This document shows, piece after piece, positions 3,634 through 58,400 of a DNA stretch of 64,000 nt. The notes beneath the pieces are model-generated. The model worked only from the letters and a program-made list of their open reading frames with translations, did not search any database and was not told the DNA's origin. The translations under genes and the position numbers were made by a program. Positions within the stretch are counted from its first letter, which is position 1, and each line of letters opens with the position of its first letter. The DNA is from an uncultured virus (IMG/VR IMGVR_UViG_3300042261_000615) (Duplodnaviria; Heunggongvirae; Uroviricota; Caudoviricetes): the IMG/VR virus record IMGVR_UViG_3300042261_000615. One strand, 5' to 3'.

Positions 3634-3948
3634 TCATCGTTCTTGAACAAAAACTTTATTATTTATATGCGTTGCATTCCCACTTCGCATCCAATCTACC
3701 ATAGCGGCGTAATATACTTCATCCTTTAATTGAGAAATGTGGTACACTCCCATACCAGCTGTGGATTTTCCCTTCGGTTCTTTTGTACTAATTGCAGTAT
3801 GCGTACTATCAATATACATTAGATAATACGGATATTTTACACCACGCATCGATACGTAGAATTTAACAACATCGTATTCTGATGGAGCCGATTCGTTCAA
3901 TTTAGATATCTCCTCTCTAATAATTTGCCTTAATTCTGATTTTTTCAT
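3634..3948 (-). CDS. MKKSEL-leader protein (putative internal head protein)
   Basis: Begins MKKSELRQIIREEISKLNE. Confidence 0.7.
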   Translation of the reverse strand: MKKSELRQIIREEISKLNESAPSEYDVVKFYVSMRGVKYPYYLMYIDSTHTAISTKEPKGKSTAGMGVYHISQLKDEVYYAAMVDWMRSGNATHINNKVFVQER

Positions 3949-4079
3949 CGTCCTTGTCCTCTGTATTTTTTAGGCTTTTCTTCTTTTGGGCCATATTTCT
4001 TTTTAATCCGACCCGTCTTATTCTCACCAAATGTAATCTTTTCTGAGTTGGAAGTTGATTTAGTCTTTGTCTTTGCCAT
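3945..4079 (-). CDS. 44-aa basic peptide ending KKYRGQGR (not in the ORF track)
   Basis: Translated by hand as MAKTKTKSTSNSEKITFGENKTGRIKKKYGPKEEKPKKYRGQGR; its TGA overlaps the next ATG (ATGA); similar KxYRGQG peptides occur in T4-like phages. Confidence 0.75.
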   Translation of the reverse strand: MAKTKTKSTSNSEKITFGENKTGRIKKKYGPKEEKPKKYRGQGR

Positions 4080-4112
4080 TTTTTCGATAACTTTTATTGT
4101 TAAACGAAACCT

Positions 4113-4349
4113 TTATTTTTTATTCGAACGTTCTTTGATTACACCATCCGAAAACATTTTATGCAATTTCATAGATGAACTATATTTCTCATCATCCCCC
4201 ATAGATTTGGTAGATGCAGCATCTTTGGATGTATTCGGGTGCTTCTTTATATATTCACGCTTTTCCTCAGGTGATAATTCCGACCACCAATCGGAATGTG
4301 CGTTATTCAATTCTTCTCTGACAATCCGTCTCAATTCTGATTTTTTCAT
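4113..4349 (-). CDS. MKKSEL-leader protein
   Basis: Begins MKKSELRRIVREELN; contains WWSELSPEEKREYIKKHP. Confidence 0.7.
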   Translation of the reverse strand: MKKSELRRIVREELNNAHSDWWSELSPEEKREYIKKHPNTSKDAASTKSMGDDEKYSSSMKLHKMFSDGVIKERSNKK

Positions 4350-4352
4350 AAT

Positions 4353-4709
4353 TTAATCTCCTGTATATTTTTTGTTGCCATAAGTGGATCTTACACTGGA
4401 TGATCCTGATTTGTAATACGTATCCCATTTTGAATTGGAACGTTCTTTGACTGAAAATGATGATGGTTTCCATTGAGTAATTATAGCGTTACCCCATCGT
4501 TTTATAAATCTCGATTTCCATTCGGAAAATCGTGATTCCGAACCAACCCCTAAAGTAGCATCAAAAGTATCAGGGAGCCATACCATACCATCCCTATCCG
4601 TATACTTCGATATAGTAGCCCATGATAATGAACCAACTTTCAATTCAACACTCTCATTGATTCGTTGTATTTCTTCCCTGATAATTTTCTGCAATTCGGA
4701 TTTTTTCAT
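4353..4709 (-). CDS. MKKSEL-leader protein
   Basis: Begins MKKSELQKIIREEIQRINE. Confidence 0.7.
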   Translation of the reverse strand: MKKSELQKIIREEIQRINESVELKVGSLSWATISKYTDRDGMVWLPDTFDATLGVGSESRFSEWKSRFIKRWGNAIITQWKPSSFSVKERSNSKWDTYYKSGSSSVRSTYGNKKYTGD

Positions 4710-5008
4710 TCTTCTATATTAGTATCATCATCGTTTTTATTCTTACCGAATATCTTACCAGCCTCAGCGATTCCAAATGCACCCAATGTAATAATAACAA
4801 AAGAATTGAATACTATATCGTTTATCACTAAATCTTTACCCATAATACCAGTAACAATATCTGCCCCTGCAAACAATACCATAACTGCAAATGCTGCAAA
4901 ACCAACTACTGATTTTTCATTGATATCGTTTGAATCTTTGAACATATCTGAAAATTTGCCCATAGTTCTTTTTCGTTTAATTGTTTCGTTTAACGTAACC
5001 ATTGGCAT
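4706..5008 (-). CDS. Small two-TM membrane protein (holin-like)
   Basis: Two hydrophobic stretches (SVVGFAAFAVMVLFAGA and IVFNSFVIITLGAFGIA) and a charged C-terminus; promoter motif 14 nt upstream. Confidence 0.5.
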   Translation of the reverse strand: MPMVTLNETIKRKRTMGKFSDMFKDSNDINEKSVVGFAAFAVMVLFAGADIVTGIMGKDLVINDIVFNSFVIITLGAFGIAEAGKIFGKNKNDDDTNIEE

Positions 5009-5029
5009 AACTTATTGTTTATATAAATA

Positions 5030-5338
5030 TCACAATTTTTTAATTAAGTATTCAGTATCAATCAATACAGAATACCCACTTCCTTTATGTTTGTAGTCCG
5101 GTGTACATCTTATACCAATACGTTTCCATATATACGAACCCAGCAACGAAGATATATCGGAATTATCCAAATTTTTATTCGATTTGAATGTGTCTATACG
5201 TTGCAAATCATCAGATGTTTTTGGAATAAATGTAAATCCACAGTCGTGTGTACTTATCAAAAAAGTAATACTACCAGCATCCCTAAATGGAATTGCCGCA
5301 GTAATAGATGATTCAGTTATAAGATTTTTTAACTTCAT
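5030..5338 (-). CDS. Hypothetical protein with MKLKNLITE leader
   Basis: Tightly packed ORF; short leader ending in Glu. Confidence 0.6.
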   Translation of the reverse strand: MKLKNLITESSITAAIPFRDAGSITFLISTHDCGFTFIPKTSDDLQRIDTFKSNKNLDNSDISSLLGSYIWKRIGIRCTPDYKHKGSGYSVLIDTEYLIKKL

Positions 5339-5340
5339 AA

Positions 5341-6042
5341 TTAAAATACATTAGGTGTTTTAAGTTTAACCCAACCACCGCCGGGCAAATCAAATAATCT
5401 TGATGGTATATTTAGAATACCATCTTTTGGCAACTTACTATGATATTGACTATCAATATGCAGTACCTTAACAATATAAGTTCTATTTTTATGGTCAGCC
5501 CCCCGCAATTCCACTTCTAACGGTACTGGAGTTCCACCTATTTTAATCTTTCCTTTATAGATATTTCCGATGGTATGACGGGATTCCCCTATTTGGTGTA
5601 TATGTTCCAAATCATCTACATAATCATCTTTGAACGTAGAATCCATCTTATTGTATTGTTTTTTCTTAACAGGTTCATAACCTCTCTTTATCTTATTCCA
5701 ATCATGTTTCCAAGACTGCAATCCAGGTATCTTATCAGTACTGTCATCCCAATCATAAGTCTCCTCCTCGGCGGGGCTACCCAAACGGTCTCCATACATT
5801 GACGCGTGATGGTGCTGATTGAAGTTACGTTCAGCTGTACTATCTTCTTTCCCTGACAACCCTGTGTTGAAATGCGGTGCACCTTCGGTTTTCTGTTTAT
5901 TCACCTCAATGGCTTGCAATTGCTTCACTGCGGACTTGTATGTAGTATGTGTACCAAGCCGTTTTCCACCGGTTTTGGAATATACAACCCATTTACCATC
6001 AATATGACGTATAATCTCAACTAATAAATTCCTTAATTTCAT
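5341..6042 (-). CDS. Hypothetical head-module protein with MKLRNLLVE leader
   Basis: ATGA overlap with the upstream gene; GKWVVYSKTGGKRLGTH motif. Confidence 0.6.
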   Translation of the reverse strand: MKLRNLLVEIIRHIDGKWVVYSKTGGKRLGTHTTYKSAVKQLQAIEVNKQKTEGAPHFNTGLSGKEDSTAERNFNQHHHASMYGDRLGSPAEEETYDWDDSTDKIPGLQSWKHDWNKIKRGYEPVKKKQYNKMDSTFKDDYVDDLEHIHQIGESRHTIGNIYKGKIKIGGTPVPLEVELRGADHKNRTYIVKVLHIDSQYHSKLPKDGILNIPSRLFDLPGGGWVKLKTPNVF

Positions 6043-6350
6043 TTTGATTGGTTACGATATTTTTCCATAATTTTGACTATATTAAGTATAGCGTCATCTT
6101 TAGATTTTTGCCCAGCCTTATAACTATGGTATTCAGTTGCTATCTGTGAATTGAGTTTATATGGTAATGATGGTATTGCCCATTTCAAATATCTAACCAA
6201 CTTATTGTAGTCAGTTACCTTATTTACGTTGTAGTTTATGATACGGTGGCCTATCTCAGTAAATACCTTATCCCAATAATCAGAAAATTTATCCTCATTC
6301 AATTTAGAAAGTTCTTCTCTGATTAACTGTCTCAATTCAGATTTTTTCAT
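6039..6350 (-). CDS. MKKSEL-leader protein
   Basis: Begins MKKSELRQLIREELSKLNE. Confidence 0.7.
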   Translation of the reverse strand: MKKSELRQLIREELSKLNEDKFSDYWDKVFTEIGHRIINYNVNKVTDYNKLVRYLKWAIPSLPYKLNSQIATEYHSYKAGQKSKDDAILNIVKIMEKYRNQSK

Positions 6351-6904
6351 TTCAATATGTAAATATTTCTATCGGTTTTATCACCATCCGATATGGTATT
6401 CAATTTTGATTTTGCATCATTTACATCCGATGCATTTATAAAGAATACAGTACCATGTCCGTTCTTTGCATTTTGTTTATAGGAGTCCGACCAAATTCCG
6501 CCCTTACCTTTATATTTTGCCCGTTGTTTGGCTTTTGGTAGATTATCGTTTATACGGTCAGCCCATAAAACAAACACATCCTCATTCACTTTATCGGATT
6601 GGTCGTAATATCCACTATTAGCCTGCTCAATATAATTTTCAGAATTACTTATATGGTCTTGAATCCAGGCAGGAATATCCTTTTCAGTATCACCAATCTT
6701 TTGTTTCAATTCGGTTGCATATCGGATAATACTATCCAACTGCTTTTGAGCCATAGATACTTCGTGATCACCATCTTCTTTAAGTGGAGCAAACGCTCTA
6801 GCATATGGATTGGAAACAACTTTACCAACCACTGCGTTCAACCTACCTTCAAGCGTATCCGGTCCAGCCGGTCTATAATTAAATAATTCCGTTAGTTTAA
6901 TCAT
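6347..6904 (-). CDS. Head-module protein with MIKLTEL leader
   Basis: DHEVSMAQKQL...IPAWIQDHI motif; first 17 aa identical to the neighbouring gene. Confidence 0.65.
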   Translation of the reverse strand: MIKLTELFNYRPAGPDTLEGRLNAVVGKVVSNPYARAFAPLKEDGDHEVSMAQKQLDSIIRYATELKQKIGDTEKDIPAWIQDHISNSENYIEQANSGYYDQSDKVNEDVFVLWADRINDNLPKAKQRAKYKGKGGIWSDSYKQNAKNGHGTVFFINASDVNDAKSKLNTISDGDKTDRNIYILK

Positions 6905-7212
6905 AATTTCATTTTTTCATATTTATACCAAACTTCGACAATGTTTTCTCCCATTGTTTGTCAGTAACCCAATCATATTTTTCAGAACCAATTTCGTAAT
7001 ATGCGTCATACACCTTACCAAGTTGGTCAATTGTGTACTTTGTCTTTTTTGACAATGCAGTAACAAACTTGTTCTTACTCCATATAGGTAGTTCATTAAC
7101 CAATGCATCGACTAATTTTTCATAATCAGTATTTTCGTTCAGCCGAACCCCATCCGTATCCGGTCCAGCCGGTCTATAATTAAATAATTCCGTTAGTTTA
7201 ATCATAATTTCA
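6854..7212. repeat. Exact 58-bp direct repeat (6854-6911 and 7155-7212)
   Basis: cgtatccggtccagccggtctataattaaataattccgttagtttaatcataatttca occurs twice and encodes the start region plus MIKLTELFNYRPAGPDT. Confidence 0.95.
6909..7205 (-). CDS. Hypothetical protein with MIKLTEL leader (start moved to 7205)
   Basis: ATG at 7205 is the equivalent position, in the 58-bp repeat, of the start at 6904. Confidence 0.65.
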   Translation of the reverse strand: MIKLTELFNYRPAGPDTDGVRLNENTDYEKLVDALVNELPIWSKNKFVTALSKKTKYTIDQLGKVYDAYYEIGSEKYDWVTDKQWEKTLSKFGINMKK

Positions 7213-7554
7213 GTTTTTGGCAAATGCAAAGTTCATATCGATTTCTTCGCCGGTATACTTTCTAATGGTGTGAAATACACCCCAAAATGCTTTGTACACA
7301 TGGCCTGCGTATCTAGGGTAGTCCGACCCGGGTACCTTCCACATCCACTCACCTCCACTCATATGATGTGGATTCATTATGATAATAGTATAACCATCTA
7401 GTAAGTTATCCACAATCTTCTGTTGGGGTGGCGTGAATTTTATATTCTTATTCTTCACTATGTCTTTGAAATCCTGTAAAGTGGTTTTACTTTCCGTAAT
7501 CACCTCTTTTTGCAAAATCTCTCGAATAATTTGCCTTAATTCTGATTTTTTCAT
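7210..7554 (-). CDS. MKKSEL-leader protein
   Basis: Begins MKKSELRQIIREILQKEVITE. Confidence 0.7.
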   Translation of the reverse strand: MKKSELRQIIREILQKEVITESKTTLQDFKDIVKNKNIKFTPPQQKIVDNLLDGYTIIIMNPHHMSGGEWMWKVPGSDYPRYAGHVYKAFWGVFHTIRKYTGEEIDMNFAFAKN

Positions 7555-7556
7555 TA

Positions 7557-8132
7557 TTAGTGCTTTTTAGATTTTTTATTTTCTTTGATACCCAACCGTT
7601 CACGCATAACTTCTTCGGGAATGTCAGCTATTTGGTAATATCTGTTGAGGATATTTCCCATGTCCTCATACAAAGCATGCATTCTTTCATCCAACGCCTT
7701 TGCATCGCTGGATACTTTATCAAACTGCTTTTGCATCTTGTCCAATTCACTCATATTACGTTTTACAGTTACAGCATCAAACCAATCTTCAGTCTCATTC
7801 AAAGTCAACTCCTTAGCAGCCTCAACTATACCACCCAACGTTTTTGATACTTCGACAATATCCGATGGTCTTTGCATTTGTTTTTGATACGAATTGTATG
7901 TTGATATTATTTCCAAAAGCAATCTTTTGGTTTTAGTGTCCAATATTTTATGTTCACCATCCAAATTCTCCTTTAAGCTGAATTTGCCATCGGTAATCTT
8001 AACTTCACTCAAATTTGTCTTTCGAATATCGTTGTAACCCTTAGCTACATGATTTTCGTATTTTGATTTTTTAACATTCAAATCAAATTTGTTTTTATGT
8101 ACATAATCGTATATGTCAAATCCTTTTTTCAT
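7557..8132 (-). CDS. Helical head-module protein (putative prohead core)
   Basis: Coiled-coil with DWFDAVTVKRNM and LYEDMGNILNRYY; located in the head cluster. Confidence 0.55.
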   Translation of the reverse strand: MKKGFDIYDYVHKNKFDLNVKKSKYENHVAKGYNDIRKTNLSEVKITDGKFSLKENLDGEHKILDTKTKRLLLEIISTYNSYQKQMQRPSDIVEVSKTLGGIVEAAKELTLNETEDWFDAVTVKRNMSELDKMQKQFDKVSSDAKALDERMHALYEDMGNILNRYYQIADIPEEVMRERLGIKENKKSKKH

Positions 8133-8138
8133 TGTTAT

Positions 8139-9038
8139 TTATTTTTTATCTAACTTAAAATATATTTCGTTTTTAATTCGGTGGAATGTATCGAATGCCA
8201 ATTTTTCATTTCCTGTAAAATTCATTTTCAACCCAATATCTTTTGAACGAACACCCTGCTTTGCCAACTTCTCAATCTGAGCGGCAATTGGTTTTGATAC
8301 AACCTGAGTTGGAGTATCTACTTCAATTATATGTGCAAATTCTTCGTTTATAGTACTTTCATTTTGTTTGAAGGTATGCAACATATAAACTTTAGTTTTA
8401 CTATTAGTATCTAAAAAATCAATTTTTATAGATTTTATAGATTTATCAATATATCGTAAAACTGTAAGTCTTGGTTGTAATGCTTTCACAATTTCTTTCG
8501 GACTTTTATTATAGTGGTTAGCGAGAGTTATAATTTGAGAATTTTTCTCTAAATCTGCATTAAATGATTCAACTGCCGATTTATAATCAATTTCGTTTAT
8601 CTTACCCTCAAACTTAAAATCTTGCTTTTCCATAGAACCAGCACTCTTTACAGCCAACAACCCCTGTTTTGATTTTGGAATTTTCAAATTAGCAATAAAC
8701 TTTTGCTTCGCATCCCAAAGACTAGTCGCTTCAGTTTCATGTTTCTGCCCATTGTAAAATCCAATGAATTTGGTTTCGGATAATTCGGATACACCTTCCT
8801 TTATCTTAAAATACTTATTGAACTCCTGCCAAACAATTTCGGCTTGGTCACTCTTAATTCTATTTTGCTTTAGTGTATCTTCCAACCCCCGTTTCATATC
8901 AGGTATATTGTTGTTATACTTTTGTTTAAGCATTCTAAATATATTTTTTGATTGAATACGAGTCGAAGCCCATTCATCATATTCGTGCAACTTAGCGATT
9001 TCCTCACCAATTATATTCCGTAATTCTGATTTTTTCAT
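8139..9038 (-). CDS. MKKSEL-leader multi-segment protein
   Basis: Begins MKKSELRNIIGEEIAKLHE; internal IKE, LSE and INE junctions separate short segments. Confidence 0.7.
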   Translation of the reverse strand: MKKSELRNIIGEEIAKLHEYDEWASTRIQSKNIFRMLKQKYNNNIPDMKRGLEDTLKQNRIKSDQAEIVWQEFNKYFKIKEGVSELSETKFIGFYNGQKHETEATSLWDAKQKFIANLKIPKSKQGLLAVKSAGSMEKQDFKFEGKINEIDYKSAVESFNADLEKNSQIITLANHYNKSPKEIVKALQPRLTVLRYIDKSIKSIKIDFLDTNSKTKVYMLHTFKQNESTINEEFAHIIEVDTPTQVVSKPIAAQIEKLAKQGVRSKDIGLKMNFTGNEKLAFDTFHRIKNEIYFKLDKK

Positions 9039-9044
9039 GTTATA

Positions 9045-9668
9045 TTATTCTTTATATTTCCATATATATCCACCAGCCGATTTTTGCTGATTTTTACAAA
9101 CTCGAGTTATGTCACCCTTATCCGTATGTGTTGATTTTCCAGCATCAGATACACTATTATATTCAGCTATAAATATCATAGACTTATCAAACTGTTGTAC
9201 TATTCGTTTTTTAGTACTGCCATCACTCATCTTTTTACGAATTTCATCTGTATAAATTCGATTCTTAGCCGCAGAACTTATTTTCAATCTTGCCTCAATT
9301 GTGTGCGTTTTTCCGAAAATTGGATTTTTATCACCAATACGAGATATGCTCATTTTATTTCTAGTAGTTTCACTAAAAACACGACCTGTATTATGGAATC
9401 CAATTCCAGGGATATTAAAATTTTGATTTAACCCATCATCAATACACTATTGTATCAATTTACTTTCTTCTAAAATAGCAGCATCTCTTGTCAAAAAATC
9501 AGTTCGTAAAATACGTTTAACTAAATTGGATTTATCAGGTTTCCATGCAACCATAGATCCCATATATCTTACATCATCAATAGCATCACCTTTACAAGTT
9601 CTACTCCCTATATAATACTTTCCGGTAGTGGGTTCTGTTATAATGTATGTATAATGTGTATAATCCAT
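9045..9668 (-). pseudogene. GIY-YIG/NUMOD3/NUMOD1 homing endonuclease interrupted by one in-frame TAG (9447-9449)
   Basis: ORF 9447-9668 (YTYIIT..KYYIGSR) and ORF 9045-9353 (NPIFGKTHT; VQQFD..AGGYIWKY) share a frame; the sequence after TAG reads CIDDGLNQNFNIPGIGFHNTGRVFSETTRNK with no other stop. Confidence 0.8.
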
Positions 9669-10261
9669 TAAATTATCTCTGTGATTATCTCACGCATTAA
9701 ATCATGTGCCCTACAAAACTCACCACAAACATCCGTACCAATACTCATCAATGGATTCACACCTTCAGTTATTGGTCTCATAAATGCACCATGAGTTGAT
9801 GGGTTGCTCACAAAGTCCCAGCATAGGAGGTCGAAATCGTCTTGCACTTCAACTCGGCCTTCTCCAATATTACGAGTAGAACCCAATCCACGTGAAGATA
9901 TGCCCAATAAAATACCCGCTCTCAATAATTCTTTCAAAATATTTCCAGATGGAGTTGGCAGTATCTCAACAACACCAATCAAATCATCACCATTCCAATA
10001 GATTTCCCTAATGTTATGGGACACATTCTTCAAATTGATTACAGTTGAGTCTGGATGGTCCAACTCACCTAGAGCACGTCTCTCTTTGATAAGTTGTTCG
10101 TATTTTTTAACTTCCCTATCAAGAATATGGTGTGGATAAACTCTACCATTTTGGTTTTCAGCGCCAGCGCGTTGTAAAACACCACGCACAATTGTTCTAC
10201 CATTTGCATCTTCTTGAAGTTTTCCTTCAAACAGTTGGGTTTCTATTAACAATGATTTCAT
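9668..10261 (-). CDS. Prohead core protease (T4 gp21-like)
   Basis: NQNGRVYP, ALGELDHP, GISSRGLGS and DFVSNPS motifs. Confidence 0.95.
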   Translation of the reverse strand: MKSLLIETQLFEGKLQEDANGRTIVRGVLQRAGAENQNGRVYPHHILDREVKKYEQLIKERRALGELDHPDSTVINLKNVSHNIREIYWNGDDLIGVVEILPTPSGNILKELLRAGILLGISSRGLGSTRNIGEGRVEVQDDFDLLCWDFVSNPSTHGAFMRPITEGVNPLMSIGTDVCGEFCRAHDLMREIITEII

Positions 10262-10788
10262 AGTTTTCTAATTTTTTCGGATATATTCATCAACCGTTCC
10301 CTAATTGAATGTAAATTCTTTTGTGTTCTAACCCAATAATCTTCATTCTTTACACCGCCTTCGGTTTTAATTTTAGAATACCAATTGATAAATGTCTCTA
10401 TTTCCGATAATTGTTTTCGTATATTGCTTATACCTTTTCCAAATTTTGCTTTCGGTGTTGATTCTTCACGTTTCAATTCCAACCAGCGGTTTTCCTTTAC
10501 CAACTGATATCCGAGTTGAGTTGCAATTTCCTTTCTGCGATTGTTATCCTTTTTACCACCCGAAAAAGCATTTGGTGTTAAATAACCAGGAACGGCAGCC
10601 GTACCAGTCATTTCTTCCAAGTCATCATCATCACATTCAACTTCTTCATTTTTTGGAACGCAATTGGGTACTTGTTTACCATCTTTGGATTTCATACCAA
10701 TCATTTCGTAATTGTCCCAGCAGGGTGAATCTTCATTCAACCTATTCAGTTCTTCTCTGATTATAAGTCTTAGTTCGGATTTTTTCAT
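10258..10788 (-). CDS. MKKSEL-leader head protein
   Basis: Begins MKKSELRLIIREELNRLNE; PCWDNYEMIGMK..VPNCVP and PGYLTPNAF motifs. Confidence 0.7.
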   Translation of the reverse strand: MKKSELRLIIREELNRLNEDSPCWDNYEMIGMKSKDGKQVPNCVPKNEEVECDDDDLEEMTGTAAVPGYLTPNAFSGGKKDNNRRKEIATQLGYQLVKENRWLELKREESTPKAKFGKGISNIRKQLSEIETFINWYSKIKTEGGVKNEDYWVRTQKNLHSIRERLMNISEKIRKL

Positions 10789-11651
10789 TTTGCCTTTCCT
10801 TTTAGTTCCTTAATCAGTTCATATGATAACATAATAGCCGATACCTGATTATCATTTACATTCTTAACAATCTTCATTTTTTCCAAAACAGAAATAGTTT
10901 CGGACAGTTTTATCTTAGTGACAGTATCGTTTATTTTGGAATTTATCTTTTTCAATTCGGAAACTATTTTGGGAATTTCGGATGATATATAATCCTTAAA
11001 TTTAGTAGTATTGGATATATTGTTGATATACTCCTTTAACAATCCCTTTTGTTTATCATCCAAATTGGTATACTTCTTATTGAAAGTTTCTACTAGAATC
11101 TTATAAGTAAGTAATCTCAAATCTTTCTCTTGTTTTTTATATGATTCGATGAGTTTGATATTGTCCGAATCTACAGATTTTATTGATTGTTTAGTTGCTA
11201 TGTTCTCAACCAATGTTTGTTTTGAATCAAATATATCTTTGACATCATATTCGGAATTACTGGATTCAAACATCTTATATATAGAAGCCAACACCTTATA
11301 ATTTGAAACGGGCGATGACAAAAATTGCGTTATATCAAATTTTTCAGTTATCGCCTTTACCAGATTATACTTTTCAGTTAGAAGTTTGGATTCATTTATA
11401 CGAGTTCGAGCAATCAATACGGCATCGACAAACTTTTCTGCCTTTTCAGTTGTATTATATTTTTCCTTTTGTAGTAATTCATACAATCTCAACTCTTTAT
11501 TCAATTCAGTGGATGGGGAAAAGTATTTGGCAACAATATGCTTAGCATGTTCATTCTTATCACCGTTCAATACTTCCAATGTTATCTGTCTCACAAGCAA
11601 TTCGAATAGTATCCCCGTATTCTTGTATTTTGAATGTTTAATTTTCTTCAT
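10785..11651 (-). CDS. Head-module protein between portal and protease
   Basis: 288-aa helical ORF beginning KIKHSKYKNTGILFELLVRQIT; promoter motif at 11690-11698. Confidence 0.6.
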   Translation of the reverse strand: MKKIKHSKYKNTGILFELLVRQITLEVLNGDKNEHAKHIVAKYFSPSTELNKELRLYELLQKEKYNTTEKAEKFVDAVLIARTRINESKLLTEKYNLVKAITEKFDITQFLSSPVSNYKVLASIYKMFESSNSEYDVKDIFDSKQTLVENIATKQSIKSVDSDNIKLIESYKKQEKDLRLLTYKILVETFNKKYTNLDDKQKGLLKEYINNISNTTKFKDYISSEIPKIVSELKKINSKINDTVTKIKLSETISVLEKMKIVKNVNDNQVSAIMLSYELIKELKGKAK

Positions 11652-11728
11652 TATTTAATTATAAATTAAGCACAATTTGTAATTATACATATAAATATAA
11701 CGATTTTAATCTTTACTAAAATTTTATG

Positions 11729-13483
11729 TTATTTTATCGTATCCAATATATTATTTTCATCTAAAAAAGTTGTTTCTTCTCCCAATAACTTCTTTTTGGA
11801 AGATATACCATTTATATATTGCGTAGCCGCATGCTTGCCGGCTGTATAATTCTTACCCTCACGCTTCAATTCTTCGGTATTTTCCTTATGCCCCAATGGG
11901 TCTCTACCATATGGATGTTTATCCTTACCGTATGTGTTGCCTTCTTTGGGTCTACCACCCACATCTTGAACTTTTGCCAACTCCTCAATTTCCTGTTCTA
12001 CATTGGTTTGTTGCGGTGGATTTGCGGGGTCTTGCCCTTGCTGTTCTATTGCGTTGTAACGATACATAGATTTCATATCTTGAACTACTTTAGCACGTTC
12101 AAGACTAATATCATCCTTACTCAATCCGAATATATTTTCATACTGCCAATCAGTCGAAAACATTTTCAATTGCTGCATACTATTAGCTAATGTAACCTTT
12201 TCAGACCAAAGATTTATCTTTTCTTGCTCATAAATTGTAGAAGCATTAGTAAGTGATAATTCAAAATTAGTCATTTCAGCATCCGTTATACCCTGTGCAG
12301 CCAAGTGTACTATTGCTATTTTTGTCAATTCACTTACAACAGTTCTTTGAATTCTTTCGATGGTTCGGGCGAATCGAACATCTTCAGCCGCTAAAGTAGC
12401 CTTACCATTTACATTTTCATCATACGCCAAATACGCTTTGGGTATTCGCAGTGCGGCAAATAATTTATGTTTTAGATAATCAATGTCCTCAATTGCCATA
12501 TAATTCAACCCACCCAACGTATCAATTGATGTACCACTGTCACCCCCACGAACTGGTAAATAAAAATCTTCGGTAAGGTTTTGTATGTTATACTTTAAGT
12601 TGTATTCGCCTGTATTTTGGTCTACGAATGGAGTTTTCTTCATCCGATTCATAATCTTTTGCATATAGTTATCAACTTCGGTTGGGTTTATATTACCGAT
12701 GTCGATTTTGAATACACGTTTATCAGGGGCTCTCATAATACGATGTATCAACATAGCATCTTCCATCAATGATAATTGTTTCCAAACACGGCGAGCGCCT
12801 TCAATCATTGACTTACCATATGGTAAAAAATTGGTGTCAGAAAGAAGTCTGAAATGAGCCATTTCATAGTTTTCATAATTAGATTTCCCCAACATATCTT
12901 GCTCCACCTTAAATTTGACATAGTTGGAATTATTAGGGTCTCCACCCTCAATACGTTCGGTATAATATATTGATTGGGGAATAATATTCATAATACCCTG
13001 CCCCTCACCAATCTCAAGTGTCAAAAAGAAATCACCATATTTTACAAGATTGCGTATCCACGGCCACAAATTGAATTCAACATTTAGTACATCATAAAAT
13101 AAATTGTCCAGCAACACTTTGATTTCTTCGTTGGATGACCGTATTTGTAGAACTTCACCAAATTCGTTTTTGGTCGTGGATTCATCTGCAAAAATGTCGA
13201 GCGCTGATGCTATGATTGGGTCGTTATCCATTGCATCATAATCACGGAAAAGTTCCCTACGAACCTGGTGGTATGCCATTGATTGTGCACTGGCCTGTGT
13301 TTCATAATATGAACGTTGTAATTTGGAATATCGGTCACGCAGCATTAATAGGTTTGTGTTTACCTGCCGTTCATCCGTATCTACAACTTTTCGTTTACCA
13401 TCTTTATCAATAGTTACGATTGCCTGCGTTGAAAATAATTTCCTTAAATTATTAAAAAAATTATTATTTTGTTGTTCTGCCAT
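11729..13483 (-). CDS. Portal vertex protein (T4 gp20-like)
   Basis: LMEDAMLIHRIMRAPDKRVFKIDIGN, EDFYLPVRG and IDTLGG motifs. Confidence 0.95.
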   Translation of the reverse strand: MAEQQNNNFFNNLRKLFSTQAIVTIDKDGKRKVVDTDERQVNTNLLMLRDRYSKLQRSYYETQASAQSMAYHQVRRELFRDYDAMDNDPIIASALDIFADESTTKNEFGEVLQIRSSNEEIKVLLDNLFYDVLNVEFNLWPWIRNLVKYGDFFLTLEIGEGQGIMNIIPQSIYYTERIEGGDPNNSNYVKFKVEQDMLGKSNYENYEMAHFRLLSDTNFLPYGKSMIEGARRVWKQLSLMEDAMLIHRIMRAPDKRVFKIDIGNINPTEVDNYMQKIMNRMKKTPFVDQNTGEYNLKYNIQNLTEDFYLPVRGGDSGTSIDTLGGLNYMAIEDIDYLKHKLFAALRIPKAYLAYDENVNGKATLAAEDVRFARTIERIQRTVVSELTKIAIVHLAAQGITDAEMTNFELSLTNASTIYEQEKINLWSEKVTLANSMQQLKMFSTDWQYENIFGLSKDDISLERAKVVQDMKSMYRYNAIEQQGQDPANPPQQTNVEQEIEELAKVQDVGGRPKEGNTYGKDKHPYGRDPLGHKENTEELKREGKNYTAGKHAATQYINGISSKKKLLGEETTFLDENNILDTIK

Positions 13484-13751
13484 ATTCTGTTATTTTTATT
13501 TTTAAGGCGCCGTTTCCTTTCAAAACTCGATGATACTTATTGGATTCTATCAAAATAAAATCACCAACCTTCATAATTTTAGGTAACTGATTATCATATT
13601 GCATATACCAATTATCACATTCCAATATCTCAATTCTACGATTACGTCGGTCACGGTGCCATACCAACTCATTTGGGTCGGTATCCGCATCGAATACTCT
13701 ATAAATAGTATTTCCCTGCTTAATATCGTTATAAGGTTTAGGTGTTTCCAT
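13464..13751 (-). CDS. Small cupin-like protein (WHRD motif)
   Basis: ELVWHRDRRNR...YHRVLKG; likely start is the ATG at 13751 (TAATG overlap). Confidence 0.6.
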   Translation of the reverse strand: METPKPYNDIKQGNTIYRVFDADTDPNELVWHRDRRNRRIEILECDNWYMQYDNQLPKIMKVGDFILIESNKYHRVLKGNGALKIKITEYGRTTK

Positions 13752-14311
13752 TACCAATAAAAGTTTCCTTGTGTTATACCTAAAGACTTCCCATAGCGTG
13801 GAAGATTGCACGACCAGTAGCCAGCCGTTGTCCTATCTTTTTTATCTTCACAATTATGTCTTGCCGCAAATGCCTTTCGTGCCTCCGGATTACTTATCTT
13901 TGTACTCAAACCACCTTTACTATCTCCAAAATTCACTTTGATAATGTTTCCATTATCATTTTTCACATATACTTTATATTTCTTCGGACCGGAACTTCGC
14001 ATTGGTTTATTTAAGTCCACACTCTTACCATTATATTCAGCCTCATTTACAGATTTTATTTCAATCGGAATATCCAATGCAACAATCGTTCCATTATAGT
14101 TTCCAACCTCACCGATGTTAGTCTGTAGCAACCAAATATCATCGGTATTCACAATTTGTAATTCACCACACTCCCATAGATGTCTAGCTTCTCTGACCAA
14201 TGCGTAGTATGAATTACTACCGGGCCTATATACACATTCTGATAATGGTTTTTTGTTATCCAAATGCCACTGCAACCCATCACTTATTTTACGTTTAACT
14301 AATAATTTCAT
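13751..14311 (-). CDS. DUF6321-like phage protein
   Basis: KKYKVYVKN..KVNFGD..ARKAFAARHNC..TAGYWSC. Confidence 0.65.
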   Translation of the reverse strand: MKLLVKRKISDGLQWHLDNKKPLSECVYRPGSNSYYALVREARHLWECGELQIVNTDDIWLLQTNIGEVGNYNGTIVALDIPIEIKSVNEAEYNGKSVDLNKPMRSSGPKKYKVYVKNDNGNIIKVNFGDSKGGLSTKISNPEARKAFAARHNCEDKKDRTTAGYWSCNLPRYGKSLGITQGNFYW

Positions 14312-14357
14312 TTTGGCTATAAGTATCGTATATCTTATAAATATAAAAAAAAATAAA

Positions 14358-15782
14358 TTACAACCACTTACTTAAGTCCTCAACCTCACCCCCAACATTT
14401 ATCTTCCAAGGGTCGTTATCCATAACAGCACTACCCCCATAGATACCACTATATGTTTGCGATGTGATACCCGATATAGTTGCCTTTGTCAAATCAATAC
14501 CTTCCTGCCGTAACCTTAGAGCAGTGTCCCGAACCCACAACCCAATAGAAAGACTCATTACCAAATCATCATTATACCCACGCATTGCCTCAGCTCTGCC
14601 ACCAAGCCAAATAAATGTAAATAACTCATCTATAAGTCTTTGAGAACGTACAGTAATTGATTTTTCCTTAAAATAATCTTCCAATTTTGATATAATAAGT
14701 GGTCTTGATTTTGATGTTGTTGAAAATCCAGCAACCAATCCACGATCCTCAGATCTATATTTATTTGTCATTTGTGTTGAAGTATCTACATATTTCAAAT
14801 CCTTAGACATATAAAAAAGATTTTTATAATTTCGATCTATTACTTGTTGTATAGTAGCCCACCCAATGTTTGCATTTTCTATCACAAGCAACGCATCGTT
14901 GTATTCAGTTGCAAGTGATACCAAAAAATTACCAAAATCCTTAGTATCCATCTTACCCCTATATTCCGCAACTTGTGCTGAATTGGATACATCAAGTACA
15001 TGACATGCTGAATAGTCTGCACCATCACCTCTGGCAACGTCAGCTACCACCATATATGTCTTGTTAAAATCGGGGTATTCCCACTTCCATAAATTACCAT
15101 CAATACCACCCTTTTCGATTGGTGGTATTACATACGTTTCTTTATAAAACATCAGCAATTCCGGATCAATCACAGTATCACCGGAACTCACGAAATCTGC
15201 GTCACATTCTTGAGCGGCTTTCTTATGTCCTAACAATACTTCCTGGTCATCTCTCCATTTCTGGTCTCGTTCCGGATGAACAGTCCAATGTAATTTAATC
15301 GGATTAAATAGTTGATTCCCCTCTTCAGATTGAACCCACGTACGATGAAACCAATTACCAACACCATTTGGGGTTGAAAGTGCGATACAACTACCACCAG
15401 TGGATAACGTTGATTGTGCAGATGTCCAAATTTCATCAATATCTTCAATGAACGCACAATTATGACTTACAATTCCATCCGAAATATATTCACCATTGAG
15501 TTCCACGTCAGTAATACCATAAACTGTGAATACCCCATCTTCATATGAAATGTCGGAAACTACCTTGCCACCACACAATTCATCACCAATAATAATATTA
15601 CTCGCTTCCAAAAACTCACCAGTCGGAAATTTGAAAAGATGGTTGTCCGTACATTTTGTCGATGTCCCATCAGTGAACGATATTGTAAACAACACATCCA
15701 CTGCCGTGCAGTGTATACCGATAAAGTCGCTAAATCCGTCGGGCGTTTCGATCTGCCAATCATTTATTTGCTTATATATCAT
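14358..15782 (-). CDS. terL: Terminase large subunit, C-terminal half, preceded by a 108-aa C-intein
   Basis: Intein blocks (CTDNHLF; VYGITDV; GIVSHN) followed by CAFI, LSTPNG, ADVARGDGADYS and NDDLVMS terminase motifs. Confidence 0.93.
   Translation of the reverse strand: MIYKQINDWQIETPDGFSDFIGIHCTAVDVLFTISFTDGTSTKCTDNHLFKFPTGEFLEASNIIIGDELCGGKVVSDISYEDGVFTVYGITDVELNGEYISDGIVSHNCAFIEDIDEIWTSAQSTLSTGGSCIALSTPNGVGNWFHRTWVQSEEGNQLFNPIKLHWTVHPERDQKWRDDQEVLLGHKKAAQECDADFVSSGDTVIDPELLMFYKETYVIPPIEKGGIDGNLWKWEYPDFNKTYMVVADVARGDGADYSACHVLDVSNSAQVAEYRGKMDTKDFGNFLVSLATEYNDALLVIENANIGWATIQQVIDRNYKNLFYMSKDLKYVDTSTQMTNKYRSEDRGLVAGFSTTSKSRPLIISKLEDYFKEKSITVRSQRLIDELFTFIWLGGRAEAMRGYNDDLVMSLSIGLWVRDTALRLRQEGIDLTKATISGITSQTYSGIYGGSAVMDNDPWKINVGGEVEDLSKWL
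15459..15782 (-). mobile_element. Split intein C-fragment (IntC, 108 aa) of terL
   Basis: Contains the block B TxxH motif and ends SHN followed by Cys+1. Confidence 0.9.
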
Positions 15783-17229
15783 TTTTGAAAGTATATTTAT
15801 TGTTAAACAATATCTTATAGGGTAGATATCCGTTAGTAGTACTGTACATTTGAGCTGCTATAACTTTGGTAAGAAATTCCCCCGATTCCAGCGATTCCCA
15901 ATACCATTTATGCTTACCCTTTATTTCAATCAATCTGAACCTATCATTTTGTTTTATTTTGAAATCAACTCGATATATTCTAGCTACCCCACCCAATGTA
16001 TATTCAACCGCGTCACCATCGAATATCTCAATATTGTTCTCCTCACAATATTGAATGAATCGTAATTCGGGTTTCGACTGGTAGTGTATCACATTGCCAT
16101 TTTTCAAAGTGTATTCATGAAGTCTATAACTATGAGATTGTGCTGTCATGCATTTATTATACACATCCACATTTTGCATTGGGTTTTCTACACCATATTT
16201 TAGTATACTCGATTCCTTATATTTTTGCCTAAACTCATCTGTTTGAAAGTATGCACCCACACCGTACTTTTTTTGATTGCTCTTTTTAATTAAATCTTGA
16301 ACCCATGCAAGTTGTGAAACATTTTCTACTTGATATTTGTCAAGCAATGCAGACTTACGGTTCACCTTCTGTTTTTCAACAACCCATTCAATTTGGTTTA
16401 TGTCATCAACCCCATATATACGTTGCAGCACTCTCTTGTTCTGGAGTGCTGTTATACCCCCATACCTATCCAAATTCGTTTTTTGTACTTTTTCAAGTAT
16501 GTCGGTGTTTTGCAATGGGTACTCTACCCCATATTTCTCTAAATTCGTTGCCTTTATGCGTGATGATAGTATAGGTGAACCGTGTAGTGTACCCCCATAA
16601 CGGGCAACCGATGTATCCAAACTTTTTTGTTTTATTTCCGGCAATTGCTGACCCCACTCAACACCATACCTATCCATATTTGTACTGATAGTTGTTTCCT
16701 TGACCTGTTTCGATTTTGTGTGATGATCAACACCATATTTGGCAAGTACAGTCTTAATGTATTTAGTCTTGTATTCATCGGTAGCGGTCGAAAACACACC
16801 GTTATGATTTTTTATATTGGTGGCAATCATTTGTTCAACATTATTATAATTTCTGTCACCATATCGTTCAAATTTAGTTACTTTAACTTTTTCTGCGATA
16901 CCGGCTACTTTACTAATATTATCGACACCATATTTAGCAAGTACTGCTTTTTTCGTATTTTCAGACTTGCGCTTACGTACCATCGGATTCTCACAACTGC
17001 ATTTGAATGAACAATGTCGTTCATATCCCCTCACCACCGATATGAATTTGGTCGGATTGGTGCACGATGGGTTCTCGCATATATTCAACGTATCCGATGA
17101 TTCATATTTTTTATAGTATTCTTCAAGAGAATATATTTCTCCTTTTTTAATATGAAAATAACTGATATGGTTTGAAAGCCCTTCGGCGCTTTTACATTCC
17201 TTGTTGCAAATTCTACATTTCAAATCCAT
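15772..17229 (-). CDS. Free-standing endonuclease between the terL halves (zinc finger, KYGV repeats, PD-(D/E)xK domain)
   Basis: CRIC..H...H zinc finger; about 10 KYGV/RYG repeats; C-terminal YQSKPE..YRVDF..LIEIKG; start placed at 17229 (MDLKCRIC), downstream of the promoter motif at 17268-17276. Confidence 0.8.
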   Translation of the reverse strand: MDLKCRICNKECKSAEGLSNHISYFHIKKGEIYSLEEYYKKYESSDTLNICENPSCTNPTKFISVVRGYERHCSFKCSCENPMVRKRKSENTKKAVLAKYGVDNISKVAGIAEKVKVTKFERYGDRNYNNVEQMIATNIKNHNGVFSTATDEYKTKYIKTVLAKYGVDHHTKSKQVKETTISTNMDRYGVEWGQQLPEIKQKSLDTSVARYGGTLHGSPILSSRIKATNLEKYGVEYPLQNTDILEKVQKTNLDRYGGITALQNKRVLQRIYGVDDINQIEWVVEKQKVNRKSALLDKYQVENVSQLAWVQDLIKKSNQKKYGVGAYFQTDEFRQKYKESSILKYGVENPMQNVDVYNKCMTAQSHSYRLHEYTLKNGNVIHYQSKPELRFIQYCEENNIEIFDGDAVEYTLGGVARIYRVDFKIKQNDRFRLIEIKGKHKWYWESLESGEFLTKVIAAQMYSTTNGYLPYKILFNNKYTFKNDI

Positions 17230-17302
17230 TTTTGCGGATGTTAGATTGTCTGATACGTTATCTTTATTATAAATATAGACAAAATAAATTTCCGTTATTT
17301 TA

Positions 17303-17911
17303 TCATAAATAATCGGTGGATTCATATAATTCACCGAGTTTCACCACTCTAACTTCCCCCGTTTCTTTGTTTCGGATAGAAATTTCTGTTTCAAAATTTT
17401 GGCATTCGTCAATTACGAGCAGCGACAGCGCCTCGCTTCTTCCGGCATCCGGAGATGATGCGATTGCTTTAATTTGAGAACCATTACTTAACTTCAAAGA
17501 TAACTTGTTATCCTCCATAGCACCCCCCTTCAACCAAGTAGGTAGCAAATCATGCATTACCCTCACCTTAGTTACAAGGTTTTTAGCAACGTCCTGTTTT
17601 GTAGCAATAACCAATACGTTGAAATCCGAATTGAACAGCATCTTCCATAATGCATATCCAGCAGACAATGTGGATATACCAGTCTGGCGAGATTTTAATA
17701 CAATATTGTAACGATTAGTTGCAAATTCCATCAATGTTTTCTCCTGAAATGGGTACAATTGAAATTGGATTTTACCCCGTACTGGATGTTGAATCATGCA
17801 GTACTTCTTCATAAAATGTACAGGATCTTGACTACATTTTACATATTCTTCAGCTACAATCTGTTTTAATGATTTTTTGGGTTGTATTATATTTGGATTC
17901 AGGTTAGCCAT
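17303..17911 (-). CDS. terL: Terminase large subunit, N-terminal half, ending in a 33-aa N-intein
   Basis: LYPFQ, KSRQTGIST (Walker A region) and LLVIDE (Walker B), followed directly by CQNFETEISI. Confidence 0.93.
   Translation of the reverse strand: MANLNPNIIQPKKSLKQIVAEEYVKCSQDPVHFMKKYCMIQHPVRGKIQFQLYPFQEKTLMEFATNRYNIVLKSRQTGISTLSAGYALWKMLFNSDFNVLVIATKQDVAKNLVTKVRVMHDLLPTWLKGGAMEDNKLSLKLSNGSQIKAIASSPDAGRSEALSLLVIDECQNFETEISIRNKETGEVRVVKLGELYESTDYL
17306..17404 (-). mobile_element. Split intein N-fragment (IntN, 33 aa) of terL
   Basis: Block A-like C..FET.I.I and V.LGELY, then stop. Confidence 0.88.
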
Positions 17912-17920
17912 ATTCGTTCT

Positions 17921-18598
17921 TTAATTATTTAGTGGGGTTACAATATCATAGTTTTTATCCTTTAACGATTCCCACGCAATTTTTCTTAGTTCTATAACTT
18001 CGTCCAATTCTTTTTGTACAATTTCCATATCCTGTGAAATTTGTGTACGTAACTCATCAGCATCCATCTCCATGCGCCACGTTTCAGTAGTTCCATTTTC
18101 GTTTATGTACTCATACTCTTGCTTAACGTCATTATATGCTTGTTTTAAGTTTGCCAAAATATCTATACCATGACTAATCATATTTGAATACATACGATAT
18201 GTCTCATATTCAGTCCACAATCCATCCAACTTTATTTGCATCTCACGCTTCGTTAGACATGACAGACAAAAACCAGTCTTACCTATCAGTTTCTTATCAA
18301 CGGAAGTATATTCGAATGTTTTACAGTCGGAAGATTTACATTCACCAAGTTCAGATAGGTATTGGCGAACTTCTGACATAGTTTCGGATATACTATTAGA
18401 GCGTATCCTGCCAAAAGATTTCTGCTCCCATCGGATTCCATCATCATCTACCCACACATCACCCACGTTCCTATGTATATCAGTTGTTTCAGATGGAAAG
18501 GCAAATTGTTTCGATTTATCATATTCACCAGTAAACACCATATCGGCCAATTTTCGGCGGGTAGGGTGCATAAAACTACGTTTGAACTCTGTACTCAT
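17921..18598 (-). CDS. Hypothetical protein upstream of terL
   Basis: 225 aa; VGDVWVD..WEQK and CxxC pairs; promoter motif at 18621-18629. Confidence 0.55.
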   Translation of the reverse strand: MSTEFKRSFMHPTRRKLADMVFTGEYDKSKQFAFPSETTDIHRNVGDVWVDDDGIRWEQKSFGRIRSNSISETMSEVRQYLSELGECKSSDCKTFEYTSVDKKLIGKTGFCLSCLTKREMQIKLDGLWTEYETYRMYSNMISHGIDILANLKQAYNDVKQEYEYINENGTTETWRMEMDADELRTQISQDMEIVQKELDEVIELRKIAWESLKDKNYDIVTPLNN

Positions 18599-18648
18599 AT
18601 TTGTATATCAATTTAATATATATAAATATATACAATATGAAAAACAAT

Positions 18649-18679
18649 AAAAAAAGAGTGTAATTTTCATTACACTCTT
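18649..18679 (-). terminator. Rho-independent terminator
   Basis: aagagtgtaa-ttttca-ttacactctt inverted repeat with an A-run. Confidence 0.75.
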
Positions 18680-18701
18680 AGTAGATTTAATGGTTAGATA
18701 A

Positions 18702-18968
18702 TTACTTAGTCCCACCTTTCCAATTGCGTTTTGCCCTTATGGCAAACGTAATTTGATGTTCTTTTTTCTTTATTTCCTCAGGAACAGATTCACCTTTTTC
18801 TTGATAAGTTTTACTACGTTTTTTCAACGTTTCCAATTCACCTTGCAATTGTGCAATAGTTTTCCCAGCATGTTCTCCAGTTTGTTTAATATCAGTGTCG
18901 GTATCCCATGCTTCACGCATTCGTTTCATTTCCTCACGAATAATTGTTCTTAGTTCTGATTTTTTCAT
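18702..18968 (-). CDS. MKKSEL-leader protein
   Basis: Begins MKKSELRTIIREEMKRMRE. Confidence 0.7.
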   Translation of the reverse strand: MKKSELRTIIREEMKRMREAWDTDTDIKQTGEHAGKTIAQLQGELETLKKRSKTYQEKGESVPEEIKKKEHQITFAIRAKRNWKGGTK

Positions 18969-40687: not shown

Positions 40688-40747
40688 AATTTAGTTTTAC
40701 ATATAAATATAACACAAATGGAAAAACATCAATATATTTTTACTCAT

Positions 40748-57966: not shown

Positions 57967-58400
57967 TATAGTTGTCCTCCGATATTAAATGTAACTGTAT
58001 TCAACGTCGGATTGTTTGCCACTTTGAATGTCAGTTGTACGTTTATAGTATATGTATCTCTATTGTAGGAATTGTTGTTTATATCTATCGATTGAATATT
58101 AATATATGGTAGCCAAAATGATACATCGTTACGAATAGCATCACTAATTCTATCAACAATACTCTCATCATTTGGTTCAAACACAAATTGCCTAAATGTG
58201 TTACCAAAATTTGGTTGCATCAGACGTTCTCCTTTTTCAGTAAGTAGTAGATTCAACAAATTTGATTTAGCCTGCGCATCAGTTGTAAAACTTTGATTAA
58301 ACGCAGTATTGGTAATCTGTATCGGTAATGTTATACCAATAGCATAATCCCTGAATGTGGGTAAATCCTGTATTTGTTTATTACCTAATACTACAGCCAT
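57966..58400 (-). CDS. Baseplate wedge/sheath initiator (gp25-like)
   Basis: NLLNLLLTEKGERLMQPNFG..FEP..WLPYI. Confidence 0.9.
   Translation of the reverse strand: MAVVLGNKQIQDLPTFRDYAIGITLPIQITNTAFNQSFTTDAQAKSNLLNLLLTEKGERLMQPNFGNTFRQFVFEPNDESIVDRISDAIRNDVSFWLPYINIQSIDINNNSYNRDTYTINVQLTFKVANNPTLNTVTFNIGGQL

Follow-up and report, generated by a model that had tools for sequence, protein, structure and literature searches.

Why should eight phage proteins with otherwise unrelated sequences begin with nearly the same dozen residues? The question is raised by the IMG/VR record IMGVR_UViG_3300042261_000615, a stretch of 64,000 nucleotides (nt), here called the window, that represents the structural region of an uncultured freshwater phage and has all of its long open reading frames (ORFs) on the minus strand (the strand of every ORF given below). 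The shared start, or leader, has the form MKKSEL(R/Q)x(I/L)(I/V)(R/G)E, and an earlier note on this DNA had likened it to the capsid-targeting sequence (CTS) that T4 has on its internal proteins (Ips). We favour a reading along these lines, at a rough probability of 70%: the leader would be a propeptide that targets proteins to the capsid and is then taken off by the head protease, a prediction made from sequence.

A regular-expression search of every ATG start on both strands found exactly eight ORFs with the start MKKSEL, all on the minus strand, and confirmed the eight of the earlier note one for one. Seven of them lie between the portal and scaffold genes, packed around the gene of the prohead protease (Peptidase_S77). 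These are the ORFs of 104 residues (3634..3948; MKKSELRQIIREEISKLNE, followed by an 85-residue cargo with an isoelectric point, pI, of 8.8), 78 residues (4113..4349; MKKSELRRIVRE), 118 residues (4353..4709; MKKSELQKIIREEIQRINE, cargo pI 9.7), 103 residues (6039..6350; MKKSELRQLIREELSKLNE, cargo pI 9.5), 114 residues (7210..7554; MKKSELRQIIREILQKEVITE, cargo pI 9.2), 299 residues (8139..9038; MKKSELRNIIGEEIAKLHE, with a modular cargo of 280 residues) and 176 residues (10258..10788; leader, PCWxxY module, ..DLEE, MTGTAAVPGYLTPNAF and a C-terminal helical hairpin). The eighth, of 88 residues (18702..18968; MKKSELRTIIREEMKRMRE, then the cargo AWDTDTD..), is found upstream of the small-terminase-side genes and adjoins the gene of a 1984-residue enzyme. 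All eight leaders contain [IV]-x-E ending at residue 12, and in seven a second [LIVM]-x-E follows at residue 19-21 (LNE three times, INE, LHE, MRE and ITE), so that the further Glu noticed before in most leaders was indeed there. Motifs of this kind (h-x-E, hydrophobic-x-Glu) are concentrated in the head region, being present within the first 24 residues in 18 of the 20 ORFs between capsid and portal but in just 9 of the 40 from the rest of the window (Fisher 6e-7). Beyond residue 22 the eight proteins fall into eight separate BLASTP clusters and are, as had been claimed, unrelated. None reached a Pfam cut-off and seven had no PHROG family. Their cargos are all basic (pI 8.3-9.7, masses 7.7-32.5 kDa), while a pI above 8 was found in just 11 of the 40 other ORFs.

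The leader had also been described as conserved at the DNA level. The pattern ATGAAAAAATCNGAA has eight exact matches in the window, every one at a leader start, plus a single site with one mismatch (50269-50283, plus strand) where there is no leader ORF; 0.18 matches are expected by shuffling, and none of 100 shuffles reached nine (the count including the mismatched site). In the DNA alignment of the eight starts ATGAAAAAATC is invariant and the 30 nt upstream are not conserved. Further into the leader, however, the conserved residues are written with differing codons: Ser4 as TCA, TCC or TCT, Leu6 as TTA, TTG or CTA, Arg7 as AGG, AGA or CGG, Arg11 as AGA, AGG, CGA or CGT and Glu12 as GAG or GAA. 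The DNA likeness is therefore real, but it is the peptide that is conserved, which argues for selection on the peptide and against a recent DNA repeat.

To what extent is this leader peculiar to one phage? When IMG/VR was scanned for a degenerate leader pattern of 36 nt, at least 131 stretches came up, with the leader on at least 128 distinct ORFs, often in tandem. In the 124 of these 128 that have at least 40 residues, positions left free by the search pattern were also conserved (E13 in 77/124, I/V/L14 in 119/124, L/I18 in 62/124 and E20 in 62/124), and past residue 20 the information sinks at once to the background level. Counting from residue 13 onwards, the first h-x-E ends at residues 15-21 in 104 of the 124, against a cargo rate of 1.7% per position. 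Behind this start the 133 distinct cargos, including those of the window, form at least 105 BLASTP clusters, 92 of them singletons. A Pfam family was found on only one of 125 cargos, and it is a domain of unknown function (DUF). When the leader profile was compared with longer proteins in a collection of 5.8 billion, 212 of the 8000 candidates scored were found at E<=10, nearly all of them without Pfam domains or useful names; the database names of the leader protein clusters are likewise ‘hypothetical protein’, besides a few plainly wrong automatic ones. As far as these sequences go, the leader is nothing peculiar to this phage: it is a tag of the whole lineage, carried by over 100 cargo families. 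Among named phages, Flavobacterium phage immuto, the nearest cultured relative seen to have leaders of this kind, has two ORFs with the start MKKSQ.., MKKSQLRQIIKE and MKKSQIVKAVQE (L001, 6293 and 16460), and neither Rhodothermus phage RM378 nor Microcystis phage Mel-JY01 has clear MKKSEL leaders. The record nearest to the window (G001, 19 kb) has no leader start. Our literature searches turned up no description of this leader; the Far-T4 paper (PMC4360716) was covered by terms in its main text, where ‘internal protein’, ‘prohead’, ‘gp21’, ‘gp22’ and ‘scaffold’ do not occur.

The head genes supply a protease that could remove such a leader. Pfam names three of them, in the same order as in T4: a portal protein of the gp20 family (11729..13483; PF07230, E 1.1e-69), a prohead serine protease of the T4 gp21 family (9668..10261; PF03420 Peptidase_S77, E 3.6e-27) with the N-terminus MKSLLIE, and a major capsid protein of the gp23 family (717..2324; PF07068, E 5.8e-78). 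In T4, gp21 cuts after L/I-x-E and takes 65 residues off gp23, according to the relevant passages of PMC9026906. The T4 record has LTE at residues 63-65 of gp23, with A as the next residue, and LDE61/A62, the predicted maturation site of the window capsid protein, is aligned with this site, E and A being invariant in the four sequences compared. The LLIE at the N-terminus of the protease aligns with that of T4 gp21, where the site is named ‘LIE-9’ (PMC9026906, same passages). Since both the capsid cutting site and the LLIE are kept, the specificity of the protease is probably conserved with T4 gp21. We also looked for S77 on 36 contigs with leaders. It was present on all five of the largest, including the three with a completeness of 90% or more, and another 31 contigs, each 20 kb or longer and 9-58% complete, yielded it in 11 cases. 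One record of 292 kb has nine leader starts, eight within 9 kb of the protease gene, and three records have a single leader start each.

Further hints of cutting come from what happens when cargos turn up in longer proteins. The cargo of the 88-residue ORF shares 77% identity with residues 147-215 of a 440-residue protein that is encoded just upstream of the protease in a related locus (L052), and the homology begins directly after MRE19 in the window and directly after ..KIKFE in the longer protein. Along the same lines, relatives carry modules of the 299-residue ORF inside other head-module proteins: its residues 229-298 have 77% identity to residues 275-344 of a 459-residue protein (L079), whose next module is in turn the cargo of a leader ORF in another locus (L050). 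The PCWxGY module, which in the 176-residue ORF stands behind LNE19, has an h-x-E at most 3 residues ahead in 27 of its 29 distinct contexts, among them a 10-residue leader (MIKLQTLLNE, then ESPCW) and many internal sites. An IDGKW-type cargo follows LVE9 in the window (IIRHIDGKW) and, at the aligned junction, IRE16 under an MKKSEL leader elsewhere (TIRKVDGKY, L135). Overall, an h-x-E lies within 3 residues of the junction in 10 of the 14 cargo families that have internal matches in longer proteins (null 18%); the family of the 88-residue ORF counts among the four misses because its junction reads K-F-E. The whole leader can even be found twice inside one ORF, in two database clusters. Free genes and polyprotein-like fusions thus swap modules at Glu junctions, as would be expected of cutting sites. 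Two details of these proteins may be recorded here. The module PCW(K/D)GY..G.K.K.GK.VPNCVP (residues 20-52 of the 176-residue ORF) moves among the head-module proteins of relatives and matches seven PHROGs of unknown function. The proteins P0105 and P0068 (407-413 residues) contain the whole leader at two internal places, after ..LKENT and ..PHNT, and are apparently fused leader-cargo units, and the name ‘ribosomal protein S20’ given to the family by one source is surely wrong.

How would the leader proteins find their way into the head? A hint may lie in the gp22-like scaffold, so called by its position at the site of T4 gene 22, a very acidic protein of 343 residues (2351..3382). The motif L..[IV][ILV]RE occurs nine times in the 20,394 ORF residues of the window (0.08 expected by shuffling): six times in leaders, twice in the scaffold and once in the 1984-residue protein. 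The scaffold copies are the islands DLEAIIRELE (residues 126-132, nt 2987-3007) and DLDEILREM (residues 191-197, nt 2792-2812), which carry the LxxI(I/L)RE motif of the leader and are both conserved amid an otherwise variable acidic stretch. At least one strict copy is present in 25 of 27 distinct scaffolds and two copies in 22. In the alignment of 26 of these plus the scaffold of the window (n=27), D125, L126, I129, I130, E132, L133 and E134 are invariant in the first island and D190, L191, E193, I194, L195 and E197 in the second. As the leader repeats these islands, we infer that the cargo may enter by mimicking a scaffold contact, and an I-R-E within the shared motif would allow one kind of cut to release both scaffold and cargo. 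Complex prediction between the scaffold and the first 42 residues of leader proteins gave a score of 0.00, which speaks neither for nor against binding.

Put together, the leader, with the consensus MKKSEL(R/K/Q)xI(I/V)REE(I/L)xxhxE and a length of 19-20 residues, would most likely be an amphipathic-helix propeptide that draws proteins into the scaffolding core while the prohead is being assembled. The S77 (gp21-type) protease would then remove it after Glu, at I-R-E12 and/or L-x-E19/20, and the small basic proteins left inside the capsid would exit with the DNA at infection. Of this sequence of events we infer core binding, cleavage, retention in the head, injection and the function of the cargos, and an anti-defence role may be suspected solely by analogy with T4 Ip1-3. 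The comparison with a T4-like tag cut by a gp21-type protease, from which the earlier note had started, is partly supported: it agrees with every computational test made, on the S77 gene in the operon, the gp23 site, the h-x-E at the leader end, the junctions, the basic cargos and the occurrence of the tag together with S77.

Short and portable peptides that bring unrelated cargo into an HK97-fold shell are familiar from encapsulins, whose cargo-loading peptides usually bind the shell protein directly and stay uncleaved, whereas removal is predicted for the window leader. The CTS of T4, found on IPI, IPII, IPIII, Alt and gp24 and removed by gp21, is nearer. It too is a short N-terminal leader on unrelated small basic proteins, ends in L/I-x-E and goes with an S77 protease and a conserved capsid cutting site, and the T4 Ips, with masses of about 8, 10 and 20 kDa, are basic as well (PMC9026906, in the part on these proteins). 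The T4 leaders have the same build (MKTYQEFIAE on IPII/III, MAKINELLRE on gp24), and IPI, with ITE at residues 17-19, has one of the same length as in the window. The differences are also clear: the window leader is twice as long as the 10-residue CTS of IPII/III and has two candidate cutting sites, its genes lie inside the head operon while the T4 ip genes lie elsewhere, it copies a scaffold motif, and the window system is known from genes alone. No cargo could be assigned to a named Ip family (Pfam 0/8, PHROG absent in 7/8). Beyond T4 itself, the polymorphic T-even ip loci encode at least 10 Ip families, identified through the signal sequence, and T4 Ip1-3 share nothing but the leader, each of them having recently been shown to inhibit a single variant of the restriction enzyme GmrSD, as reported in the relevant sections of PMC12373910. 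One tag, many unrelated cargos, tandem hot spots and fast turnover, as those sections portray them, are features of both systems, which differ in scale (at least 105 cargo clusters here) and in hosts and lineage (aquatic Far-T4). In the giant phages phiKZ, 201phi2-1 and SPN3US the propeptides of ejection proteins are cut after Glu by a gp21 homologue (relevant parts of PMC5694885 and PMC9026906). They resemble the window leader in being N-terminal, on head-internal proteins and cut at a short Glu-ending motif; as presented there, they are mostly of 80-130 residues and belong to paralogue families, unlike one short portable tag on unrelated proteins. What would be new with respect to T4, on the genes compared here, is the tag itself, its length with two candidate sites, its place in the head operon, the scaffold likeness, the interchange with polyproteins and the breadth of the cargo.

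Several points weigh against this reading. Among the related loci (the 80 closest protease loci of at least 595 relatives in IMG/VR, 72-81% identity) the exact MKKSEL leader was found in one only (L059), and so the leader is not tightly tied to the protease lineage. The other 79 have looser leader-like N-termini (e.g., MDNSKLKAIIGELIKE, MTSKLRELIDELLEE and MKEQLRKIVRETMKE). S77 was not seen on 20 of the 31 smaller leader contigs mentioned above, which is weak evidence as these fragments are 9-41% complete. One of the eight leaders, that of the ORF starting at 4349, has VRE12 and lacks a further h-x-E over residues 17-21. The hydrophobic-x-Glu motif is short, and the proteins are rich in Glu and Lys; an h-x-E ahead of a module could belong to the module itself and be no cutting site. 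With MKTYQEFIAE or MKTFKEF.. of T4 the leader has no sequence likeness, only M-K and the final h-x-E being common. Besides, a 166-residue ORF (58400-58900) beside gp25-like baseplate genes, starting with MDTNKLLKAIQILVEEEV, is homologous (E 1e-10) to ORFs under the MKKSEL leader in other phages, and would be either a head protein encoded elsewhere or a sign of wider use of the tag. Lastly, we found no virion proteome, N-terminal mapping or cleavage assay for this phage or for other leader carriers.

Among the alternatives, the one that survives best, and which we still hold unlikely, is that the leader proteins are accessory scaffold or core parts like T4 gp67 and gp68, which would help to build or size the prohead, be cut up and leave the head without being injected. 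It draws its strength from the 176-residue ORF, which shares 4 nt with the gene on either side, the S77 protease gene among them, and has homologues in 81 of 81 related loci. All of its 62 distinct orthologues have a leader-like N-terminus with h-x-E, and in these orthologues L-(D/E)-E stands directly ahead of a conserved M(T/S)xTGxVxGY motif. This ORF belongs to the core of the head module, in the position of T4 genes 67/68, and is no accessory cargo, so that the eight cannot all be taken, as they had been, for a set of cargos. T4 gp67 and gp68 are small, have L-I-E-type motifs near the N-terminus and share the position between portal and protease genes with this ORF and the 288-residue ORF next to it, with no sequence likeness seen to either in a side-by-side reading. 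The copying of scaffold islands by the leader would also fit such a role, and T4 core proteins are cut to fragments that exit the head (PMC9026906, in the passages on the core). Set against this, four of the eight cargos have no relatives in the 81 loci and 92 of the 105 cargo clusters are singletons, a turnover not expected of assembly parts and typical of arms-race genes, e.g., the T-even ip genes (PMC12373910, relevant sections). Being basic and of 8-33 kDa, the cargos moreover resemble the T4 Ips that are kept in the head, and they contrast with the acidic scaffold.

Somewhat less probable again is that the leader is an amphipathic helix of general use, serving in oligomerisation, in contact with membranes or in the binding of a host target, and is unconnected with the capsid. 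The hydrophobic residues (6, 9, 10, 14 and 17/18) have the spacing of a single helix face, and in the AlphaFold2 model of the 176-residue protein the leader is a separate helix (residues 3-19; confidence, pLDDT, of 82 and 74 per block) ahead of a low-confidence stretch (residues 21-80) and the C-terminal helical hairpin (mean pLDDT 61.7, pTM 0.29). A leader that forms a separate helix would suit the propeptide reading too. The leader family encoded by the baseplate genes would also suit such a helix, as would a 163-kb record with four scattered leader starts, 13 to 55 kb from the protease gene, but distance is no argument here because the T4 ip genes too lie far from the head genes. A helix of general use would explain neither the tight coupling to the head genes in the window nor the end of conservation at a protease-type motif, the junctions conserved in fused forms and the S77 gene in all three near-complete carriers. 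Very improbable, finally, is that the shared start works as DNA or RNA, as a translation-initiation cassette (A-rich starts favour translation initiation) or as a recombination joint for cassette swaps, with the peptide as a by-product: the invariance of ATGAAAAAATC and the frequent tandems, expected if a shared stretch promotes cassette exchange, would fit, whereas past codon 4 the codons vary with the residues kept, residues 13, 14, 18 and 20 are conserved in the 124 ORFs though left free by the pattern, the leader is found inside ORFs too and the scaffold has the same peptide motif.

If the capsid-targeting propeptide is real, it would be a handle, readable from sequence, on proteins delivered with the phage DNA by abundant uncultured freshwater and marine phages, and would suggest that cargo is recruited through mimicry of the scaffold, recruitment being a step that has yet to be explained in T4. 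It would also provide a new packaging tag for engineering, the second and unrelated to that of T4, whose 10-residue tag is already in use for loading foreign proteins into capsids (PMC9026906, in the passages on this use). A bolder version can be offered only tentatively, as we consider it doubtful: that this is the universal portable head-loading tag of a large aquatic T4-type clade, mimicking the LxxIIRE contact helix of the scaffold so that one motif is both address and cutting site, and that its more than 100 unrelated, mostly basic and family-less cargos, free or in polyproteins, are injected effectors. If so, they would constitute a large and unexplored store of proteins that act against host defences or take over the host in the first minute, and the tag would allow them to be found from the sequence.

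The individual cargos gave few matches. That of ORF 3634..3948 has no Pfam or PHROG family and no relative in the 81 related loci; the ESM Atlas provided no usable feature match for it, only neighbours of low template-modelling (TM) score to a poor model (pLDDT 0.47), and with the 104-residue ORF as the query, tblastn matched none of 50,697 phage records even with E values of up to 10 allowed, so that no cultured phage with this exact leader came to light in this way. For ORF 4113..4349 only the protein itself was found among proteins of similar length in the collection of 5.8 billion. The sole match of ORF 6039..6350 in the 81 loci is at the level of the leader, to the locus with the exact form (L059).

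Shorter Glu-ending leaders on neighbouring genes had been listed as well, and all are present: MKLKNLITE, MKLRNLLVE, MIKLTE twice, and those of the protease (MKSLLIE), scaffold (MANSKLLKE) and capsid protein (MANFDLSKLME). MKLKNLITE begins an ORF of 102 residues (5030..5338). MKLRNLLVE, followed by IIRHIDGKWVVY, begins one of 233 residues (5341..6042; PHROG 3684, unknown function), the cargo of which is found under the MKKSEL leader in other phages. MIKLTE followed by LFNYRPAGPD.. begins a 185-residue ORF (6347..6904) with homologues in 35 related loci, and the same start is found in its N-terminal paralogue, a 98-residue ORF counted from ATG (6909..7205). These 9-residue leaders and MIKLTE have the same build as MAKINELLRE of T4 gp24 and MELITE of Alt. 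The 1984-residue multi-domain protein (19052..25006; Pfam PF01467 and PF01743) combines cytidylyltransferase-like and poly(A)/CCA-polymerase head domains and starts with MNRLTNFLVE (LVE10). Its relatives begin with MNGLSQFLVE or MNRLAQFLIE, and one of them contains an IDGKW-type module after ..AIYE. Given the short leader at its start, also in relatives, it may be a large cargo.

The closest capsid proteins in the phage collection are those of an uncultured phage (53%) and of Mel-JY01 (52%), followed by Flavobacterium phage vB_FspM_immuto (50%) and RM378 (41%). We have therefore placed the phage in the ‘Far-T4’ group; judged by these relatives it is an uncultured freshwater ‘Far-T4’ myovirus. 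The stretch is present in 3 DNA sequencing runs from 2 studies, solely of freshwater or lake water, of which one may be its source, and no RNA runs were listed by the sequencing-run search. Two further proteins of the head module are conserved: one of 288 residues (10785..11651), which heads the tightly packed unit and has homologues in 79 related loci and no match to a Pfam or PHROG family, and one of 191 residues without a leader (7557..8132), with homologues in 78. From the 288-residue ORF through the ORF at 5030 the genes are spaced by -4 to +6 nt, with a single break where a GIY-YIG/NUMOD3 endonuclease is inserted behind the protease gene. This homing endonuclease is in two pieces (9045-9353 and 9447-9668) between the protease gene and the 299-residue leader ORF, and another ORF of the same type (48-626) lies downstream of the capsid gene.

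The gene of the large terminase subunit (TerL) is fragmented (14358-17911), while related phages have a single TerL of 527-534 residues. The N-terminal ATPase part (17303-17911) ends in an intein-like stretch, the C-terminal part (14358-15782) opens with another that ends in ..VSHNC, and a free-standing 517-residue ORF with DUF7487 lies amid the pieces (15772-17325). To go by these stretches, the arrangement resembles a ‘fractured gene’ that contains a split intein. There are sub-threshold intein-splicing matches as well in the Metallophos (gp47-like) ORF (40748-43039) and at the N-terminus of the SMC_N (gp46-like) ORF (37221-39515), with a 391-residue ORF between the two (37221-43039). A hidden Markov model (HMM) of the leader, iterated over the 80 protease loci, drifted to the N-terminal helix of the large terminase (KKSLKEIIAEEYKKC), and in the window residues 11-23 of the ATPase part (KKSLKQIVAEEY) resemble the leader, a likeness to which the HMM responded in many relatives. 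We rejected this candidate, as the likeness is probably a coincidence involving a conserved TerL helix. By reading only, KKSLKEIIAEEYKKC lines up with REMVEEWKKC of T4 gp17.

An ORF of 3365 residues (26841-36938) has long runs of short repeats, NTA(I/V)G..(A/S)L, and is presumably a giant fibre or surface protein. The T4 late promoter TATAAATA was not found ahead of the leader ORFs on the gene strand. As a word it is over-represented in the window (39 matches vs 18.5 expected; e.g., at 5022, 11690, 14336, 18621, 25423, 36959, 40702, 45764, 47730, 52309, 58926 and 62646). The intergenic copies stand for the most part on the plus strand, which makes the gene strand read TATTTATA, and these lie 14-39 nt upstream of minus-strand structural genes; TATTTATA may be a promoter-like element of this lineage.

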